The notes: a model not told the origin generated them from the sequence alone. DNA of 64,000 nucleotides from an uncultured Candidatus Saccharibacteria bacterium (GCA_964450915.1 CAYVFG010000001.1:1694-65693), one strand, 5' to 3'. Shown: positions 2,229 through 12,560, counted from the stretch's first letter. Program-made: numbers and translations.

Positions 2229-3353
2229 CTAAATTCCCGCACGTTTCGCCCGCAGCACTTCCTCCACCTCTCCCAGCGGCAGGCAGTTGATCACATCCTT
2301 CCGCGTGAGCCAGCCTTTGCGGGCGGCTTTGATGCCATAGATCACCGCCTGCAATCCGTGCGTGCTGTGGGCATCGGGGTTGATGCTGCATTTCACGCCT
2401 TTCGCTTTCGCGAGCTTCCACCAGCGCCAGTCCATGTCCAGACGCCACGCGCTGGCGTTGAGCTCGATGATGGTGCCGGTTTCCGCGGCGGCATCGATCA
2501 CGGCAGCCACGTTCACATTGTAAGCAGGGCGCTGCAGCAGCAGCCGTCCCGTGAGATGTCCCAGCATGGTGACGTGCGGATTCTCAATGGCTCGAATGAT
2601 GCGCTTCGTCATCTCCGCCTCGGGCAAATTGAAGACGTTGTGCACGGAGGCGACCACATAATCGAGCTGGCCCATAATCTCGTCACTGAAATCGAGGCTG
2701 CCATCCTTGAGAATGTCCACCTCGCTGCCGGCAAAGATGCGGAAGCCCTCTTCGGCCATCTCCTCATTCAGTGCCTTGATCTCTTCGATTTGTTTCAACA
2801 GTCGCTTCTCATCCAGCCCATTCGCCTGGAAAGACGACTTGCTGTGATCGGCGATGCCAAGGTACTGCAAACCCAGCTCATGCGCCGCCTCCGCCATCTC
2901 GCGCAAAGTCGCGCCACCATCGCTGGCGGTGGTGTGGTTGTGAAAGACACCGCGCAGATTCTCAAGCTGGATGAGGCGTGGCAGACCACCGTGCTCGGCG
3001 GCATCTATCTCGCCCGTGTTCTCCCGCAGCTCAGGATCGATGAAGTCGAGATCCAGCGCGCGGTAGAGTTCCGCTTCATCATGAACCGGTGGAATGACCG
3101 GCGCATCCGCATGATCCGGCACCGGCGTGAAGCCATACTCATTGAGCGACCAGCCACGAGCAAGCGCACGCTGGCGGATGGCCACATTGTGCTCCTTGCT
3201 GCCGGTGAAGTAGACCAGCGCAAAAGGGAACTCCTTGCTCGATACGGCACGCAGATCGCACTGCACCCCATGAGTGACGTGCACACTGGCTTTCGTCGGC
3301 CCTTTGGCGATGACATCCACCACCAGTGGCAGTTGCACAAAGGACTCGATTAC
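2229..3353 (-). pseudogene. DNA polymerase X family fragment (thumb + PHP phosphoesterase domain only); N-terminal 8-kDa/palm region missing; frame closes with a stop inside the first hairpin of the repeat island
   Basis: FALVYFTGSKEHNVAIRQRALARGWSLNEYGF (PolX thumb) followed by a PHP-domain histidine-rich region; no ATG start; in-frame stop at 3354-3356 coincides with hairpin 3354-3376. Confidence 0.55.
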
Positions 3354-3939
3354 CTAGTAAGATTTTTCACTTGCTCCGCGCCCCAGTCAAGACCAGCATG
3401 CTGGAGAAAACGCTACCTATCTTCACAGCATTTAACACCAGCAAGAACAAATTCCTGCTCACAACTCTACGGAACCATGCCATACGTTAGTTGACTCTAC
3501 TGAACTACGCGACGATACACTAGCAAAGTTTCTTGCTCGTAACTTCACACCGGCTTAGTGAGCTGGACGTTAGGTAGCGGTATGATACCAGCAAGAATTG
3601 CTTCCTGCTCTCCACAAAAGGCCAATCAAGTTTAGTTTAATCAAGTCCACTGAATTGTACTAAAGCACGCACCCTAGCAAGAAATAAATCTTGCTCACGA
3701 CATTATTGTAGCGAAGTATACAGCTCCTAATCGTAGGATACTGGACAATGCGATAACACCAGCAAAATTTCTTTGCTCTCTGCTTTAGTCTGCAAAGGGG
3801 AACAACGAATTACTGGAGTCCGCTCAAGTGTATACACTAGCAGAATTTTCATTCTGCTCGCCAAGCAGTACAGTCAACCTCAATTCAGGACAGGTTAAGC
3901 CACGGCAGCATGCCAACACCAGCAAACAGCTGTTTGCTC
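3354..3939 (-). repeat. Hairpin-unit array 1a: 8 units of conserved short stem-loop (AGCAAG-loop-CTTGCT) separated by ~50-65 nt of unique sequence; CRISPR-like but noncanonical
   Basis: Hairpins at 3354-3376, 3437-3460, 3519-3538, 3587-3610, 3674-3696, 3758-3778, 3836-3859, 3918-3939; loops differ; mismatches resolve to G-U pairs on the minus strand. Confidence 0.7.
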
Positions 3940-4050
3940 GCAACCACGCGAAACTATACGTGACTGAAACTCACGTAACGACACTGCACCGAACCTAATT
4001 GAATCAATTGTCAAACAACGATCAACATCCCCCTTTCTGCTGAATATCAG

Positions 4051-4088
4051 GAACGGATTAAAATAACATATTATCATATTTTTTGCAA
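4051..4088 (-). promoter_or_regulatory. Conserved AT-rich junction element, promoter-like (TTGCAA -35-like box directly abutting the upstream terminator T-tract), reading toward array 1a
   Basis: ggaacggattaaaataacatattatcatattttttgcaag; near-identical copies at 7378-7420 and 9606-9650. Confidence 0.4.
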
Positions 4089-4118
4089 GAAAAAAGCGAG
4101 AGTAATGAAACTCTCGCT
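4088..4118 (-). terminator. Intrinsic terminator (minus strand) closing array 1b / helicase transcription unit
   Basis: stem agcgagag...ctctcgct followed by a T-tract on the minus strand (A-tract 4088-4095 on plus). Confidence 0.6.
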
Positions 4119-4173
4119 GTGCACTGTTGTTAACTTCACAGGAGGAAGCAAAACAGCACTTTACTTAATGAAC

Positions 4174-4770
4174 ACTAGCAAGAATTTCATCCTGCCCTGG
4201 ACAATAGCCTAGCTAACTAAAGAACGCTGGAGCGAAGACTACTAAAGCTCAAATACCAGCAAAATTTCTTTTGCTCTATACTACACCAAGCAGCAAGGAA
4301 GTGTGCGTTAGTCTACCAGAGATCACGCTATTTTATAGAAGCGAGAATTCTAAAATTCCCGCCCTGGAACATAGGATAAGGTACTTGGCGGAAGCCCGGG
4401 ATACTCAGCCTAATTTAAACTAGCAAGTTTTCTTGCTCGTTATGCTACGTGAGCATACGTTAGTCCAGATTGCTTAAGTCTGCGACACTCCACTCCAATA
4501 CCAGCAAGAAATAAATCTTGCTCTACAGAAAGCATAAGAACAAATTACTGGAGCCAACAAGACTGGACACTATACACTGGCAAAATTTCTTTGCCCGAAA
4601 CGTTAGGCCAGCCTAATTAAGTCTAGCGAGCTACGACATACAGGACGACACTATGTACACTAGCAAAAAATCTTGCTCTTTACCGAAGAGAACTCCACAA
4701 AGCCCTGCGAGAGCCTACCTAACTTCAGTGTAAGATATAAGAGAAGCGAGGATGCAAGCATCCTCGCCCT
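4174..4770 (-). repeat. Hairpin-unit array 1b: 9 units; immediately downstream (minus strand) of the helicase gene
   Basis: Hairpins at 4174-4197, 4255-4276, 4339-4364, 4419-4438, 4500-4523, 4576-4596, 4658-4678, 4746-4767 (plus 4339 and 4746 long-stem gcgag variants); 4500-4523 identical to 9424-9447. Confidence 0.7.
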
Positions 4771-4815
4771 ACACTCGGCTTCGCTGCAATTCAGAGCAGG
4801 TCACCATACTTCACT

Positions 4816-6672
4816 TCATGTTCTCTGACTCAGCAAATCCTCTGCATCACGAATGCAGTTCTCAAACGGCAAGTCGCTTCGGTAGGATTTCTCCAACCAA
4901 GGAGGCAAAGCCCCCCACACAATCTTCTTGAATTGTTGCGAGATGAAGAATGTAACTCCAACATCTCGCGTACTTCGAACATTGCGTCCGCGCACTTGTA
5001 ACGCTTGCTGCATCACACGCCAATTCCACAGCGCCCACCTGGCACCACCGAACCGCTTCTCTTCGAACTGTGTTCCGGGATCCGTTGGTACAGGGTATCC
5101 GGGCCGCAGAAAGAAGATGATCGGTGCAGTCTGTTTTGGCAGATCAACACCCTCAGCGTAGTTGGAAGCAGTGCCTACCAAGCAGTCGCCTACCCCTTCC
5201 TTGAACTTGATTGCGGCTTGCTTTGCGGTAACGCCATTCCCGTAGCTGATCGCTTCAAGCTTCTCTTCTTTTGCAAGCTGAAGAAACTTGTCACGCTCAT
5301 CATTGGAGATGGTAACCACCAAGCTGCGATGCCCCTTGAGCGCAAATCGTTTTGCCGCACGAGCAATCTTTCGAATGCTTTGTGTCATGTCGCGCGCAGT
5401 CCGCGTGTTCATGGCAAGATTCGGCGTGTCCGTCGGCAAGTACAGCCTTGTATTTCCCGAAGGAAAGTTGGATTGCAACTGCAAGCACGGAAACCGAATC
5501 CCCGTTTCGTGTCCGAAGATTTCAGGATCACCGATCGTCGCAGAAAATGCGACAGTCAGCGGAGGCAGAATCTTTCGAATCAGCGGGGCCACATAATAGC
5601 ACCGCACCACGAGCTTGCACTCCACTAAGTCTCGCTCTCCTTTCTCGAACTTGTAGAAGGCACACGTGTAATTGAGCGGCTTTCGCTCTTCGGTCTCGAG
5701 CGAATACTCAAAAGAATGTGAATACCGGCGCAAATCTCGCACCAGTGTTTCCAATTTCTTGAGCGCCACTCGATCCTCTTTCGCGTCGATGGTTCCGTTT
5801 CTCACGGCCTTCTCAATACGCGAAAGAAGTTTTCCCGAATCCACGTCTTCCAAGATCACCATCAAGCGGCGAAGTTCTGCATCCGTAAGAAGTACTGGCT
5901 CGTCGAGTTTCCTCTTCTTGCAAATGTACTTCATGGAAGCAAGAAACTTTTCCAGCACTTCAACTTCCGGAGCATCTATCCGAGTCAGCAATTCGATAGA
6001 CCGTTCCAGATGGTAATCTGTAATGTCGTACGAAAGCGAACTGCGAACGATTTCCGCAATCCGATGCGCTTCATCAATCACGAGCGCGCCCGTTTCCGGG
6101 AACTCATGACTGAACAGTTGAGTGAACAAGTAGAACGACGTGGTGCAAACCACGACGCCCCCTTGCTTCGCTTCGAACTTCTGCTGAAGATACGGACAAG
6201 CAGTTGCCCCCGGCTCAAACGTTTCTCCTGTTGTTTGATCAACCCGGTGAGGGCATGCCTTCAACATCGAACACGGAACTTCGTCAGCTTTGATGGTTTT
6301 TGAATCCAACGTAAGCTGAACCAGCTCTTCGTCACCGATGACTGATTGCCCTTGGTAATACAAGCACGGATGCTCGCATCGCCCCAAGGCAATTTTTACG
6401 TCTGGAAACTCCTCCCTGATTTGCCCTACCAACGTTTTGTTGGGAGTGACAAAAAATGAGGTACCTCCATCGCGCTGCACCGATGCTTCAAGCCATGCTT
6501 TGGCAACTGCCGTTTTCCCTGAACCTGTCGGGGATTCAACGACCGCAGACCCGTTCTGGGCCAAAAATTCCATCATTTCATCTTGGCCTTTCCATGGGCC
6601 ATTTGCGTACCTTCCGCCTCGCGGAAAGCTAGCCTGCAATGCGTTCAGGCTAAGAGGGTTCTGATGTTTCAT
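4816..6672 (-). CDS. Rad3/XPD/DinG-like superfamily-2 helicase with Fe-S cysteine cluster between Walker A and B (Csf4/DinG-like)
   Basis: Walker A ESPTGSGKTAV, DEAH box VIDEAHRIAEI, Cys-rich insert (CEHPC, CSMLKACPH, ACPYL, VVVCTT) between them; start ATG at 6670-6672 (MKHQNP) with GAGAAGGAA RBS. Confidence 0.7.
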   Translation of the reverse strand: MKHQNPLSLNALQASFPRGGRYANGPWKGQDEMMEFLAQNGSAVVESPTGSGKTAVAKAWLEASVQRDGGTSFFVTPNKTLVGQIREEFPDVKIALGRCEHPCLYYQGQSVIGDEELVQLTLDSKTIKADEVPCSMLKACPHRVDQTTGETFEPGATACPYLQQKFEAKQGGVVVCTTSFYLFTQLFSHEFPETGALVIDEAHRIAEIVRSSLSYDITDYHLERSIELLTRIDAPEVEVLEKFLASMKYICKKRKLDEPVLLTDAELRRLMVILEDVDSGKLLSRIEKAVRNGTIDAKEDRVALKKLETLVRDLRRYSHSFEYSLETEERKPLNYTCAFYKFEKGERDLVECKLVVRCYYVAPLIRKILPPLTVAFSATIGDPEIFGHETGIRFPCLQLQSNFPSGNTRLYLPTDTPNLAMNTRTARDMTQSIRKIARAAKRFALKGHRSLVVTISNDERDKFLQLAKEEKLEAISYGNGVTAKQAAIKFKEGVGDCLVGTASNYAEGVDLPKQTAPIIFFLRPGYPVPTDPGTQFEEKRFGGARWALWNWRVMQQALQVRGRNVRSTRDVGVTFFISQQFKKIVWGALPPWLEKSYRSDLPFENCIRDAEDLLSQRT

Positions 6673-6758
6673 GACCTTGCGTTCCTTCTCATTAATCATC
6701 CAAATTGTCAAACAGCACTGTTCGCAGCGCCAAAAAAGGCACAAGCTACGAACTCATT

Positions 6759-6788
6759 TTTATAGCATATCTTACTATTTTTGTAAAG
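6759..6788 (-). promoter_or_regulatory. Sigma70-like promoter for the helicase gene (TTTACA-N18-TATAAA)
   Basis: -35 tgtaaa at 6783-6788 and -10 tttata at 6759-6764 read on the minus strand. Confidence 0.4.
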
Positions 6789-6798
6789 TATCTTTGGG

Positions 6799-6832
6799 TA
6801 AAAAAAGAAGCAGGCGTTTTGGAACACCTGCT
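6799..6832 (-). terminator. Intrinsic terminator (minus strand) closing array 2a
   Basis: agcaggcgttttggaacacctgct stem-loop followed by T-tract (A-tract 6799-6807 on plus). Confidence 0.6.
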
Positions 6833-6895
6833 CGGTAACTTGCTTCACTGTGCCTAAGTGGACATCAGGACAAAGAACAACGCCTCAGTGGATAT

Positions 6896-7321
6896 ACCAG
6901 CAAGAATAAACTTGCTCTAGACTACTCGGAAGAATACTTCACTCGAGGACAGGTTGCGCTACACCAGTGCATTACACTAGCAAGCCGAAGCTTACTCAAG
7001 ACTCAGGGGTACGCCAGATTAGGCTGCTTAGCGAAACCTCGCGCTAGGCCATAACACTGGCAAATCGCAATTTGCTCCCTACACGACATTAGTTTGCTTG
7101 GCTAGGGTCTACAGTGCAGAAACGCACTATACAAAATCAAAGAGTAGCAAGAATTATTTCTTGCTCTGGGGTGAAAAGGACCACAGGATACGGTAGTGAA
7201 CTGCGACAAACTAGAAACACCAGCAAGAATAAACTTGCTCTCCACACCTACACAACTTTGCAACAGTATGCGAGACGCCAAAGTACTGAGGAATAACACT
7301 AGCAAGAAGTTATTCTTACCC
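6896..7321 (-). repeat. Hairpin-unit array 2a: 6 units
   Basis: Hairpins 6896-6917, 6976-6997, 7056-7077, 7143-7166, 7219-7240, 7298-7321. Confidence 0.7.
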
Positions 7322-7377
7322 TACAAAAAATGGCAATCTAGACTACTCGACCCAAGCCCACGGAATTTAATGAGTTG

Positions 7378-7455
7378 TTAAAGAACAAACTAAAATAACA
7401 CAAGATTATATATTTTGCAAGTAAAAAAAGAAGCAGGCGTTTAGAAACACCTGCT
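7378..7455 (-). terminator. Terminator (7423-7455) plus conserved promoter-like junction element (7378-7420) separating arrays 2b and 2a
   Basis: agcaggcgtttagaaacacctgct + T-tract, then TTGCAA and AT-rich box; near-identical to 9606-9685. Confidence 0.55.
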
Positions 7456-7510
7456 ACGCACGGAGCGCGAATTAACTCTACGTCAGAACGCTGTAGTTAA
7501 CTTCATTACC

Positions 7511-7783
7511 CTAGCAAGGAAGAAACCCTGCTCATAACCGTACTTACAAGACACTTAAGCAGGCAGCTGTATACTGCAGAGCGCATAACTACATACACTA
7601 GCAAGAAATGAATCTTGCTCTGCACGTTGCTTTGCTGCTGAATAATGGACTGCAGATAGCTGCACCTAACCGCGCATACCGGCAAGAATGCTCTTGCCCG
7701 CCACCCTAACCAACTGCTCAGCAATGGAGAGGACCCCAGTTTACCTTACTCAGAAGTAACAATGGCAAAGCGATCCCTTGCTC
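7511..7783 (-). repeat. Hairpin-unit array 2b: 4 units; begins 18 bp after the stop of the 211-aa RAMP-like gene (likely co-transcribed)
   Basis: Hairpins 7511-7533, 7597-7620, 7678-7699, 7761-7783. Confidence 0.65.
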
Positions 7784-7800
7784 GAACCTGAACGAGACAA

Positions 7801-8436
7801 TTACGAAGTTTGTTCGTTCCATTCACGAACCCGAAATGCTCCATACGGCCCCTTCTTATTGGGACGATACAATCCTAGCCCTTGACCTTGTCCAGCCATC
7901 TGAAACAATCGAACAAGTTTTTCACGAAGTATCATGTTGTGATCATACGAAATGTTGATCACGAATCCCCACTGGTCAAACCGGGGATATGAAGTGTAGA
8001 CCAATCCTCGGTGTCTCGATGTTTGAGGTGATATGTGACGTACGTGGCATACCCAATCGGGCTCTCGTTCGTCATGCCCGTTGGAAAGAACCGTGAATTC
8101 ATCTTCGAAACGAATGACCTCACTGATAATGTCTTCCGCGCTTCTGCAGCATCTAAGCGAGTTCTGACAACGAAGCGCAGCAACTACTGCCCCGCAAAGC
8201 ATTGAATTTGGTATCGCCACTTTACCCGCCGGATTCCGATAGATGCATGCTGCGGCACGATCTCTAAAAGATTCTCTTTTGATGACACTCATCACTTCTT
8301 CGGAAAATTTGTTCATGATGAGCGGACTTGTACCGATGCAGGCAATGGCAACTGAGCGCATGTCTGCTTCAGGATCTGCGACTCGACCAATCAGTATGCG
8401 GTCATTTACGATTACCATACGACGAATCTTCCCCAT
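7801..8436 (-). CDS. RAMP-like protein (Cas5/Cas6-like size, C-terminal glycine-rich loop), 211 aa
   Basis: C-terminal AGQGQGLGLYRPNKKGPYGAFRV glycine-rich loop; internal IPNSMLCGAVVAALR motif; paralogous to 11550-12206 and 10440-11348; GAGGAA RBS. Confidence 0.45.
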   Translation of the reverse strand: MGKIRRMVIVNDRILIGRVADPEADMRSVAIACIGTSPLIMNKFSEEVMSVIKRESFRDRAAACIYRNPAGKVAIPNSMLCGAVVAALRCQNSLRCCRSAEDIISEVIRFEDEFTVLSNGHDEREPDWVCHVRHISPQTSRHRGLVYTSYPRFDQWGFVINISYDHNMILREKLVRLFQMAGQGQGLGLYRPNKKGPYGAFRVREWNEQTS

Positions 8437-8543
8437 TATTTATTCCTCAAATTGGAACAGAACAATCAAAAAATCATCCAATAGAATCATCTATTGGAAC
8501 ATGATAATTTAGCATAATATTGAAATAAAGTCAAAATTTACGC

Positions 8544-8575
8544 AAAAAAAGAAGCAGGCATATAAAACACCTGCT
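8544..8575 (-). terminator. Intrinsic terminator (minus strand) closing array 3
   Basis: agcaggcatataaaacacctgct + T-tract (A-tract 8544-8550 on plus). Confidence 0.55.
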
Positions 8576-8628
8576 CTAAAAGAAGCTACAGTGAACCTGG
8601 CTAGAATCTACGCTAGGACACGCAAATA

Positions 8629-9532
8629 CACTAGCAAGGGAACCCCTGCTCTGTGCCGTATTGAACCGCACGTTAGTTTACGCTGCGAGACCAAACGGCA
8701 ATACCAGCAAGACTAAACTTGCTCTCCCAGGACACAGTAATCTAGGTTACTGTACTACGCTCAAGTGATCTCTACAGAACAGAATAATACTAACAAGAAT
8801 GACAACACTCTTGCTCGATACGGCACCCTAGGAAACGTAACTCAACCCTAGAGTAGCGCTGACACAAGCAAAAACTTGCTCTCAACGAAACCTTTGTTCG
8901 CCTAACACCAGCCAACCGAGGGACACTGGGCATCAGAACACGCCAGTGCAAACAATAGCAAGATTTTTCTTGCTCGACACCAAAGGTGACGGGACTGAAC
9001 TACAGGCCAGAAAACTATATACACTAGCAGGAAGAGCCCTGCCCATAACTGCTGTGCGCACTAGTTGACGGGAACACACGTAACCCTGGGGGACCTAATA
9101 CACTAGCAAATCGGAACTTGCCCAACACCTTAGCCGGCATTAACACACTAAACGCAAGCCTAGCGGAACTAAGACAGAAGCAAGCAACGCTTGCTGATTA
9201 CTAAGGCGAAGAAAACTCTGCTCAAGTCAAGGACTCTCAACTCAAGTCTACCTAAAATACTAGCAAGGAAATTCTTGCTCAGCATGACACACTACCGCTC
9301 AGCACAACAGACTTCTGAAGAAAGCTACAGGCTAGAGAAGATTAATACTAGCAAGAAAACTTGCTCATCACTTCAGAAAGGAAAACGTTGCGAAAGTAGA
9401 CTGTGCGTTACTCTGGGTAATACACCAGCAAGAAATAAATCTTGCTCGCTAGCGGAGCGTATAATAGCGAACTCAAGAAAACCTGGCGGGGCTGCACTCC
9501 ACTTCAACACTAGTAAGAAAGGCTTCTTGCTC
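8629..9532 (-). repeat. Hairpin-unit array 3: 12 units
   Basis: Hairpins 8629-8651, 8703-8724, 8789-8816, 8864-8883, 8954-8975, 9023-9044, 9102-9123, 9177-9197, 9259-9280, 9347-9366, 9424-9447, 9509-9532. Confidence 0.7.
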
Positions 9533-9605
9533 TTTAGTACACTCGAAAATGGGCCACGAAACTAGGCAAGAGCAAACCTAAGTTCACTACACGTACTTCT
9601 TAAGT

Positions 9606-9685
9606 TGTTAAAGAACGAATTAAAATAACACAAGATTATATTTTTTGCAAGTAAAAAAAGAAGCAGGCGTTTGGAAACACCTGCT
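9606..9685 (-). terminator. Terminator (9653-9685) plus conserved promoter-like junction element (9606-9650) between arrays 4 and 3
   Basis: agcaggcgtttggaaacacctgct + T-tract; TTGCAA abuts the T-tract; AT-rich box follows. Confidence 0.55.
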
Positions 9686-9732
9686 CGAGACTGAGCCTAA
9701 GCCCACTAGAGAGCACGTAACATCACGTGAAT

Positions 9733-10305
9733 ACTAGCAAGAGACTTCTTGCTGCGCGCCAAAGATAACGACAAGAAAGAACACGATACTACGCCAGACG
9801 AACATACACCAGCAAGTCGAAACCTGCCCCAAACGCCACCGTGACATACAATATCGTACGACACTCAAACAAGCTATACTGAATCCAGCAAACCAGCAGA
9901 ACTATTTCTGCCCTCGACAAAACGGCGCCGTAGACGACTTGAATATAGGGTACTGTGCTAAACCAAATACACTAGCAAGGCTTGGCCCTGCTCCTCACGA
10001 AAGACGAGATTACCCCAGCAGACTCAACTTTAGAGTGCAGTGCGATAACACAAGCAAGAAAATTCTTGCTCTCGAGAACGGGGTGCTTTACGCCGGGGTA
10101 CGTAAGCCGACGCCAGGGTAACTTATAACACAAGCGAGCAACTTCTCGCTCTGCACCAAACCAAACTGGAATGTAGGTAACAGTGTCGTAGCGCAGAATA
10201 TCACACAAGCAAGAATAAACTTGCTCACCACTATAGCGGACCGTGCCAGGCATGAGTCCAGTCGACGTGACGAGAGCACATTATAATAGCAAGAGAGTCT
10301 TGCTC
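9733..10305 (-). repeat. Hairpin-unit array 4: 8 units
   Basis: Hairpins 9733-9754, 9808-9829, 9892-9913, 9971-9993, 10049-10073, 10129-10151, 10204-10226, 10287-10305. Confidence 0.7.
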
Positions 10306-10365
10306 ACAAACAATAGTCGAACGGACCGGAACAAACTGCACTAAAGCACGCTTGACGTTAATAAA

Positions 10366-10398
10366 GAAGCGGGCAATTCAGATGAATCACCCGCTTTG
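10366..10398 (-). terminator. Probable terminator after the 312-aa RAMP-like gene
   Basis: aagcgggcaattcagatgaatcacccgctt stem-loop with weak T-tract on the minus strand. Confidence 0.4.
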
Positions 10399-10439
10399 GA
10401 CTGCGCTGCAAAGCAGGTTAGTCAACAGCAGAACAGTAT

Positions 10440-11348
10440 TTACACCAGCGAGATGCCGTATGCCTGCTTGGCAAATGATGTTTGTCGAGGAGTGGAAAAT
10501 CTCCCACCCGACCGAACAAATGGTTCATCAAGCTTTTCGTACGTCACCCGCTCACCAGGTACCAAGAACTGCCGAAGTGGGCGCTTCGGAGCGTCTCGCC
10601 ATCCGACGCGCGCCGTAATCCGCTGATCACCCACGTAGGTGATGATCGTGCCGACACCTCGAGCTTGGTAGAAACTTTCCACCACGCCTTCGTTGTCTTG
10701 AAGATCATGCGGAACTTGCAACTCAGGCTCCTCCACATACTCCGCTCCCGAAGGAATGACGAGTTCTGGACGAACAAGTTGTTCCATCAACATCCAGTCT
10801 GCCAACAAATTGTTGAACGACTGGTGCCGTTCGAGCCGCGGAAATGTTGGTCCGTCTCGATCAACGCATTGCAATCGATCATAGGCAAGTTGAACGGTGA
10901 GAAAGAAGTTGCCGCCTTGCGAGACGACCGCCACCTTCCACACGTTCATAAGATTCGTAGGCGAGCTCCCGTTCAAGACAAGCCCTGCAATGCAGAGCAT
11001 GTTGTTGGGGTAGCTCACGAACGATTCGCCTTGGCCATCGGTGCTGGCTTCGACCGGCATCTTAATGCCGTACACCTTCGATCCAGAAGGAAGTCCGCGA
11101 GCGGCTACTGCCGCTTGCATCTCCTTCTGAAATGGCTTTTTGGGCTCGCCAGGCGCAGCCCAGTCTCGCTGAAGCCTGCACTCGTCGCTGCCTTGTCGGA
11201 TAAATCCGAAGCAAGGAACGCCGGGGTCAACCGTGGCATCCAACACGACATGCCCAGAATAGAGCTTGCCCATGGACCCGTCTTCCGCAACGTCGATCAA
11301 TCGACCTTGCTTGTAGACATTCAGCGTAACACCAGGAATCCGAATCAT
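10440..11348 (-). CDS. RAMP-like protein, ~303 aa (Cas7-like size), paralogous motif to the two ~215-aa proteins
   Basis: YPNNMLCIAGLVLNG motif shared with IPNSMLCGAVVAAL / LPAQMLIAALVTAG; upstream TTGACA-N17-TACAAA promoter; fully antisense ORF 10482-11375 judged to be a shadow. Confidence 0.4.
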   Translation of the reverse strand: MIRIPGVTLNVYKQGRLIDVAEDGSMGKLYSGHVVLDATVDPGVPCFGFIRQGSDECRLQRDWAAPGEPKKPFQKEMQAAVAARGLPSGSKVYGIKMPVEASTDGQGESFVSYPNNMLCIAGLVLNGSSPTNLMNVWKVAVVSQGGNFFLTVQLAYDRLQCVDRDGPTFPRLERHQSFNNLLADWMLMEQLVRPELVIPSGAEYVEEPELQVPHDLQDNEGVVESFYQARGVGTIITYVGDQRITARVGWRDAPKRPLRQFLVPGERVTYEKLDEPFVRSGGRFSTPRQTSFAKQAYGISLV

Positions 11349-11425
11349 GATTCCAACCCTTCTTTTGCAAATTGACAACGATCAACCACACAATCTCGAA
11401 AGGCACTCCCAATCGAGAACATTGC

Positions 11426-11454
11426 TTTGTAGCATGACTTGCATAAAATGTCAA
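11426..11454 (-). promoter_or_regulatory. Sigma70-like promoter (TTGACA-N17-TACAAA) for the 312-aa gene, directly abutting the upstream terminator
   Basis: tgtcaa 11449-11454 and tttgta 11426-11431 on plus. Confidence 0.45.
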
Positions 11455-11488
11455 GAAAAAAAGAAGCGAGAGTAATGAAACTCTCGCT
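11455..11488 (-). terminator. Intrinsic terminator after the 218-aa RAMP-like gene (same hairpin family as 4088-4118)
   Basis: agcgagagtaatgaaactctcgct + T-tract on the minus strand. Confidence 0.6.
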
Positions 11489-11549
11489 ATTTACTTCTCC
11501 TAACGTTGAATTGGGAACAGATAGACGTTTCAAGACACGTCCGAACGAA

Positions 11550-12206
11550 CTAAGCCGCCGCTTTGCCTTCTTCCTTTCCGTCGACCACGATCTTGATGGT
11601 GTTGTCGGATGAAGCGACAGCGTCGTCGTTCCATTCGATGACCCGGAACATTCCGTACGGCCCCTTCTTGTTCGGGCGGAACGATCCGAGTCCCTGGCTG
11701 GTACCGGCGTTGGCGAACAGCTTGAGAACCGAGTCGCGTCCGGCGATCTTTTCGTCGTACGTGAGCTCAACTTCGAACGCCCATTCGTCGCATCGCGGAC
11801 GGACGACGCACACAGCCACGGGACTCGCCGAAGCATTGCTGACGCCTCGCCTGCTGTCGGGAACCCATGTCGGCTCCTTCCCATCCCGACCGTTCGTGAG
11901 GTACAGGTGCTGGCTCGTCACCGTCAAGAAGTCGAACAAAGTCGTGGTCTGCGCTGTCGAGACCTGCTTCTTGCCGAGCTTGACATTGCGACCAGCGGTC
12001 ACCAACGCTGCGATCAGCATCTGTGCCGGCAGGGCGAGCTTACCATCCTTGTCGGTGTAGACCTTTTCCTTGGCCTTTTCCTCTTGAGGACGATCCTTCT
12101 GGAGTTGGAGCCGAACGCCGGTATCGAGGCTTTTGAGCACCTCTTCCGACATCCGATCCATCAACAAAGGGCTGATCCCCACGCACACGCATCGAACTTT
12201 TCGCAT
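11550..12206 (-). CDS. RAMP-like protein (Cas5/Cas6-like size, C-terminal glycine-rich loop), 218 aa
   Basis: AGTSQGLGSFRPNKKGPYGMFRVIEWND loop nearly identical to the 211-aa paralog; LPAQMLIAALVTAGR motif; GGAG RBS. Confidence 0.45.
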   Translation of the reverse strand: MRKVRCVCVGISPLLMDRMSEEVLKSLDTGVRLQLQKDRPQEEKAKEKVYTDKDGKLALPAQMLIAALVTAGRNVKLGKKQVSTAQTTTLFDFLTVTSQHLYLTNGRDGKEPTWVPDSRRGVSNASASPVAVCVVRPRCDEWAFEVELTYDEKIAGRDSVLKLFANAGTSQGLGSFRPNKKGPYGMFRVIEWNDDAVASSDNTIKIVVDGKEEGKAAA

Positions 12207-12303
12207 GGCTGAACTCCAATTCTTCTATTGTAAAGACACGAAACGATTGTTCCATCAAGACCTTTTCTTGCGGAACAAATGACCCTAGCATAATGATAAA
12301 ATC

Positions 12304-12352
12304 TTGTCAATAGCAAAAGAAAAAGACCCCGATGCCACGTGGCAAAGGGGTC
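12304..12352 (-). terminator. Terminator (gacccc...ggggtc + T-tract) with abutting TTGACA -35 box; marks the upstream boundary of the island operons
   Basis: Same terminator-then-promoter architecture as the internal junctions. Confidence 0.45.
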
Positions 12353-12377
12353 AGGGCAAATTCACCCTAAAACATTA

Positions 12378-12560
12378 TTACGACTTCTTGGCATTTTGAG
12401 AAAGATGAGCGTACTTGTTTTGCGCCTTCCCTCTCCTCAAGCGCCTGCTTTTGCGAGTCTCGCCGCCCGGTTTCTTCATCTTCTTGCTGCTGCCGCTTTT
12501 CCCACTTGTACCAGTAAAGTGGGTACTTTTGTGAGAATGCCCACGATTACTACGAGCCAT
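12378..12560 (-). CDS. Small lysine/arginine-rich hypothetical protein (60 aa)
   Basis: MARSNRGHSHKS...; followed by the terminator at 12316-12352; no family recognised. Confidence 0.3.
   Translation of the reverse strand: MARSNRGHSHKSTHFTGTSGKSGSSKKMKKPGGETRKSRRLRRGKAQNKYAHLSQNAKKS

Follow-up and report, generated by a model that had tools for sequence, protein, structure and literature searches.

Seven terminator-promoter joints that would divide a helicase-associated VIPR locus of a Candidatus Saccharibacteria bacterium into consecutive transcription units

Described systems and the present locus

[quoted passage not shown] The text of the former (10.64898/2026.04.26.720920) reports YNNNG-type repeats, helicase accessory genes, chromosomal copies and varied array architectures, and distinguishes types I-VII, of which types III-V carry nucleases or helicases. 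Other described systems that invite comparison are type IV-A CRISPR-Cas (Csf1-3, Cas6/Csf5, DinG/Csf4), TIGR-Tas (PMC12045711; 10.64898/2026.09.09.750476) and the boxA antitermination of long CRISPR arrays (PMC7665894).

The window analysed here is a stretch of 64,000 nt from an uncultured Candidatus Saccharibacteria bacterium (GCA_964450915.1, CAYVFG010000001.1:1694-65693). Its region 3350-12352 (minus strand) very likely represents a helicase-associated VIPR locus in which seven joints, each made of a predicted intrinsic terminator and a close-following extended -10 promoter of the sigma-70 type, would split the locus into seven consecutive units; the VIPR assignment is based on RNA features and a single profile match to a Vipr of known structure that belongs to a different type. 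As far as the preprint texts describe them, VIPR systems resemble the locus in a small single-protein RAMP (Vipr, homologous by sequence profile), in pentanucleotide-repeat guides that have conserved and variable positions and are closed by a structured 3′ element, in accessory genes including helicases, and in having no CRISPR array. The locus differs from the systems presented there by its parts, namely two Vipr paralogues, a DinG/XPD-type helicase, an OB-fold protein (P3) and approximately 46 guide RNAs distributed over six sub-arrays (A-F), and by its tail, predicted to be a plain hairpin whose loops vary, in contrast to the pseudoknot that forms the tail in SUSP1. Since the word “terminator” is absent from the main text of both VIPR preprints, the joints and the idea of the tail as a terminator appear not to be described there, figures and tables aside. 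The joints are a useful detail on guide production, not a new kind of system.

With type IV-A CRISPR-Cas the locus shares the pairing of a DinG-family helicase with a guide-coating RAMP, and interference without a nuclease would be the likely outcome. However, it has no Csf1, Csf3 or Cas6, it lacks both constant direct repeats and spacers of uniform length, and its guide code is 5-nt periodic, whereas that of type IV-A is contiguous. TIGR-Tas is similar in its tandem guides without constant repeats, its occurrence in candidate-phyla bacteria and phages, and its sub-array splitting, but it is characterized by variable stems, box C/D loop motifs and a Nop-domain protein, while in the present locus conservation lies in the stems, the loops are irrelevant and the protein is a RAMP; no Nop domain was found in the proteins of the locus, which thus does not qualify as TIGR-Tas. 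Finally, boxA antitermination addresses the same problem, in which long arrays that are not translated are terminated too early and lose their distal guides. It does so by antitermination from one leader promoter, whereas the present locus apparently relies on numerous short units that each carry a promoter and a terminator.

Proteins of the locus

The gene vipr1 (11550-12206, minus strand) encodes a Vipr-family RAMP of 218 aa and vipr2 (7801-8436, minus strand) its paralogue of 211 aa (35% identity, E 1e-41; phrog_4652 2.7e-14). Both of these ~215-aa proteins match the phage family phrog_4652, and a profile built from 31 family members matches PDB 36pp_D, “SUSP1 Vipr protein” (E 3.5e-10, residues 1-196 of 208 profile positions). 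They show the RAMP fold with a glycine-rich loop that is expected of VIPR. The gene at 4816-6672 (minus strand) encodes a DinG/XPD-family helicase of 618 aa, with the Pfam domains DEAD, ResIII, DEAD_2 and Helicase_C_2, and matches PADLOC typeIV_DinG (3.7e-41), phrog_2488 (3.6e-35) and XPD in PDB; against NCBIfam cas_csf4 it reaches 16.5 bits, with a cut-off of 400. This helicase also adjoins vipr in the related loci L001, L002, L004 and L011, as a VIPR accessory (vap-type) gene would. The accessory protein P3 (302 aa; 10440-11348, minus strand) carries OB/S1/cold-shock-like domains, and the three non-helicase proteins have no Pfam, NCBIfam or PADLOC match. The final codons of P3 (10447-10468) double as the first tail hairpin.

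Guide arrays

One guide (vrRNA) consists of approximately 10-12 S-Y-N-N-N pentamers followed by a 3′ hairpin (GAGCAAG-loop-CUUGCU) and RGURU, the pentamer runs keeping register with the hairpin that comes after them but not with the one before. The 5-nt periodicity is pronounced, with a T autocorrelation sum at lags 5, 10 and 15 of 0.36 compared to -0.004 +/- 0.029 in shuffles (~12 sd). In the 288 pentamers of the window, position 1 is G/C in 83% and position 2 is T/C in 94%, and the same logo is found in L001, L011 and L002. The tail stems show covariation at pairs 4-6 (A-U to G-C) as well as G.U pairs on the sense strand. Their loops measure 2-16 nt, and successive hairpins are separated by units of 51-76 nt (“spacer” mean 61.7 nt, sd 5.1). 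Wobble pairs in the stems are far more often G.U than A.C (32 vs 7 in the window, 131 vs 26 over four loci), an excess that favours the minus strand as the RNA strand. All six arrays lie on this strand: F (9686-10366), with pentamer tracts and tail hairpins, E (8577-9605; 12 tail hairpins), D (7456-7800; 4 tails), C (6834-7377; 6 tails), B (4119-4743) and A (3350-4050; 8 tails), the last of which has no terminator and ends at a jump in GC content. A search of the 55 kb that lie outside the island for guide targets, under rules skipping 0-3 bases, found none.

The CRISPR framing implied by the first-pass annotation does not fit these arrays, which are pentamer-built VIPR guide arrays, nor the RAMP-like proteins, which are Vipr homologues. 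A reading of the region as a type IV CRISPR-Cas locus in degenerate form, whose joints are CRISPR leaders, combining promoter and integration signal, in front of several arrays, is highly improbable. Csf1, Csf2, Csf3 and Cas6 profiles gave no match, whereas the proteins match Vipr by sequence, and Tandem Repeats Finder reports no array. The supposed repeats have variable loops and covarying stems, the supposed spacers are uneven in length as well as 5-nt periodic, and one guide is kept across three genomes, whereas CRISPR spacers turn over. In addition, none of the genes called up to 10 kb away in three relatives belongs to a Cas1/Cas2 family. The reading of the joints as CRISPR leaders is thus already contradicted by features of the repeats, spacers, proteins, Cas1/Cas2 and guide conservation. 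Because no Cas1/Cas2 family occurs among these neighbouring genes of the three relatives, the suggestion that the joints could be leader-like holds in the sense of promoters with a short transcribed leader, but not in the sense of sites of spacer uptake.

Predicted terminators at the joints

Within the VIPR locus, all seven minus-strand joints reported in the first-pass annotation were recovered at the coordinates given there, each with a stable hairpin, a T-tract and then a promoter-like hexamer. In order of the proposed transcription, the first terminator (12325-12352, T-tract 12316-12324; -19.4 kcal/mol, z -4.8) belongs to an unrelated stem family and would end an upstream small basic ORF, and the second (11465-11488, T-tract 11456-11464; -14.6 kcal/mol), of the AGCGAGAG..CUCUCGCU family, follows vipr1. 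The third, of the AGCAGGUG..CGCCUGCU family (9661-9686, T-tract 9652-9660; -16.0 kcal/mol), is in pentamer register and would form the tail of the last guide. Three terminators of the AGCAGG family follow at 8552-8576 (T-tract 8544-8551; -13.3 kcal/mol), 7432-7455 (T-tract 7423-7431; -14.8 kcal/mol) and 6808-6833 (T-tract 6800-6807; -16.0 kcal/mol), and the last one (4095-4118, T-tract 4090-4094; -14.7 kcal/mol) is again of the AGCGAGAG family and in pentamer register. The two hairpin families previously distinguished, one used after arrays and the other after arrays and a RAMP-like gene, occur where they had been described. Over the seven sites the hairpin energies range from -13 to -19 kcal/mol, with no shuffle folding equally well. 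Behind every hairpin comes a run of 5-9 T, interrupted once at most, and this T-tract is confined to the minus strand. A GC-rich hairpin with a U-tract directly after it on the transcribed strand is what defines an intrinsic terminator, and the joints can be classed as such by prediction.

Compared with the hairpin that closes a guide at its 3′ end, the terminators at array ends are longer, GC-richer copies that share its pentamer register. In the tracts leading up to the terminators at 4118, 6832, 7455, 8575 and 9685 the S-Y-N-N-N register is kept exactly as before ordinary tails, and no pentamer tract precedes the one at 11488, located after the vipr1 coding sequence. The array-end terminator thus probably caps the last guide besides stopping transcription. 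The same kinship in stem sequence and register would also be expected if the joint hairpins were merely guide tails or processing signals with read-through, the T-tracts being A/T-rich upstream elements of internal promoters, so that few long precursors with internal starts would be made. Two further observations point in this direction: equally strong hairpins lie evidently inside transcription units (10367-10396 and 4744-4769), and in the relatives L008 and L010 the T-tract is literally a promoter spacer. Nevertheless, we regard read-through as rather unlikely, as a 9-12 bp hairpin running directly into 6-8 U (z -4.7 to -6.3) is a canonical intrinsic terminator, ordinary tails continue with RGUGUAU and not with U-runs, and the loci of L001, L002 and L011 close with the same combination of hairpin and T-tract, there with no promoter behind it.

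The internal hairpins also count against the preferred reading, i.e., termination at the joints. The hairpin at 10367-10396 (minus strand, -19.4 kcal/mol), conserved in L001 and L011, is tail-like and has a weak T-tract (UCUUUAUU); it passes as a strict terminator with no promoter after it, and would cap the first guide after P3, possibly acting as an attenuator. The one at 4744-4769 (minus strand, -17.5 kcal/mol) is likewise tail-like and lies just past the helicase stop codon, at the start of array B. Both match the terminators in stability without a good T-tract, which indicates that a strong hairpin is not in itself enough to make a stop.

Predicted promoters at the joints

All seven joints contain a -35-like hexamer and a -10 hexamer that starts with TA, separated by a spacer that is always 17 nt long and has TGn at its end, and thereby have the elements of a putative extended -10 sigma-70 promoter (-35, 17 +/- 1 nt, TGn, -10); these calls are matches to the sigma-70 consensus, which may not be that of the host. 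All are on the minus strand. The vipr1 promoter (TTGACA 12310-12305, spacer ending TGC, TAGGGT 12287-12282) is also found upstream of vipr in L001. It is followed by those of P3 (TTGACA 11454-11449, TGC, TACAAA 11431-11426) and vipr2 (TTGACT 8534-8529, TGC, TAAATT 8511-8506), and by that of the helicase gene (TTTACA 6787-6782, TGC, TATAAA 6764-6759), which is the same in L001 and L011. Three promoters precede arrays, at 9606-9650 (TTGCAA 9650-9645, TGT, TATTTT 9627-9622), 7378-7420 (TTGCAA 7420-7415, TATTTT 7397-7392) and 4051-4088 (TTGCAA 4088-4083, TGT, TATTTT 4065-4060), each with a leader, which at the first of these is a conserved, presumably transcribed stretch of ~20 nt. The -10 elements TAGGGT and TATTTT are weak. 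A -35 of TTGCAA or TTGACA, claimed previously for all joints, was found at five of them, but not at 6787 (TTTACA) and 8534 (TTGACT). The order of terminator and hexamer was correctly described, but the hexamer does not always follow immediately, as the -35 lies 1-13 nt past the end of the T-tract and 5-20 nt from the base of the hairpin.

Under one fixed rule, a promoter scoring at least 9 follows 6 of the 7 strict terminators inside 3300-12400, the exception being 10368-10395. In the rest of the window this holds for 2 of 24, and random positions give a background rate of 1.3%. Site 12325-12352, whose stem has an internal loop and therefore does not pass the strict rule, is outside this count, and its promoter was read by eye. 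The tail GCTTCTTTTTTT has exactly 5 copies in the 64 kb, all at joint sites; with at most one mismatch, 1.2 chance matches are expected, and the observed count was reached in 0 of 100 shuffles.

Proposed transcription units

The earlier proposal of serial minus-strand units, with one grammar shared by genes and arrays, is supported by the sequence and by the comparison with relatives, from which we infer termination and initiation at the joints. In this arrangement, vipr1 would form unit 1, P3 co-transcribed with array F unit 2, array E unit 3, vipr2 co-transcribed with array D unit 4, array C unit 5, the helicase gene co-transcribed with array B unit 6, and array A unit 7. The array-end hairpin would have two jobs, as 3′ cap for the last guide and in the release of RNA polymerase, and the T-tract just upstream of the next -35 could also serve as an A/T-rich upstream element.

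A likely benefit would be that each untranslated array is kept short (0.35-1.0 kb, 4-12 guides) under its own promoter, which may keep guide dosage even along ~4 kb of non-coding DNA and uncoupled from protein expression. Such units would escape polar decay or Rho-dependent termination, both of which are known to affect long CRISPR arrays (PMC7665894; 10.64898/2026.07.09.737519). We infer this dosage rationale for the splitting of the arrays.

Copies of the joints and related loci

Three of the joints had been described as near-identical elements of ~80 bp. This is true of 7378-7455 and 9606-9685 (89.9% identity; 93.8% in the promoter part), but not of 4051-4118, which is 64-66% identical to both. 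The conserved columns of the array joints are exactly the -35, TGn, -10 and hairpin/T-tract. Similar copies recur within a locus (window, 3; L001, 2; L011, 5), as would be the case if they lacked any regulatory role and were either copies of a small mobile or duplicating (MITE-like) cassette or scars left by the duplication of arrays. Such an origin is very doubtful given that they have neither terminal inverted repeats nor target duplications, that the conserved columns are those named above, that gene promoters of different sequence share the same plan, that the 80-bp element was not found outside the island within the window, and that copies are orthologous in position between genomes. For instance, 4051-4126 is 92% identical to L001 12405-12480, 4118-3983 is 86% identical to L001 16413-16548 over 136 nt, and 4051-4118 is 86% identical to both L001 junctions.

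The regulatory reading of the joints agrees with their recurrence in L001, L011, L002 and L008, the relatives being candidate-phyla (Patescibacteria) bacteria. L001 (Vipr 87% identical) has them behind vipr, at two places between arrays, ahead of the helicase gene and at the locus end. L011 (P3 53% identical) has at least six; its array promoter is 85-87% identical to that of the window, and its helicase gene 72% at the DNA level. L002 (Vipr 54% identical), which has a different repeat sequence, has two joints whose terminator stems mimic its own repeat. In L008, AGCAGGCG..CGCCTGCTTTTTTC and then TTGCAA are found directly after vipr. In the distant relatives L008 and L010, the -35 is supplied by the tail's own 3′ arm and a -10 follows the T-tract, so that each guide has its own overlapping predicted terminator and promoter, i.e., one putative unit per guide.

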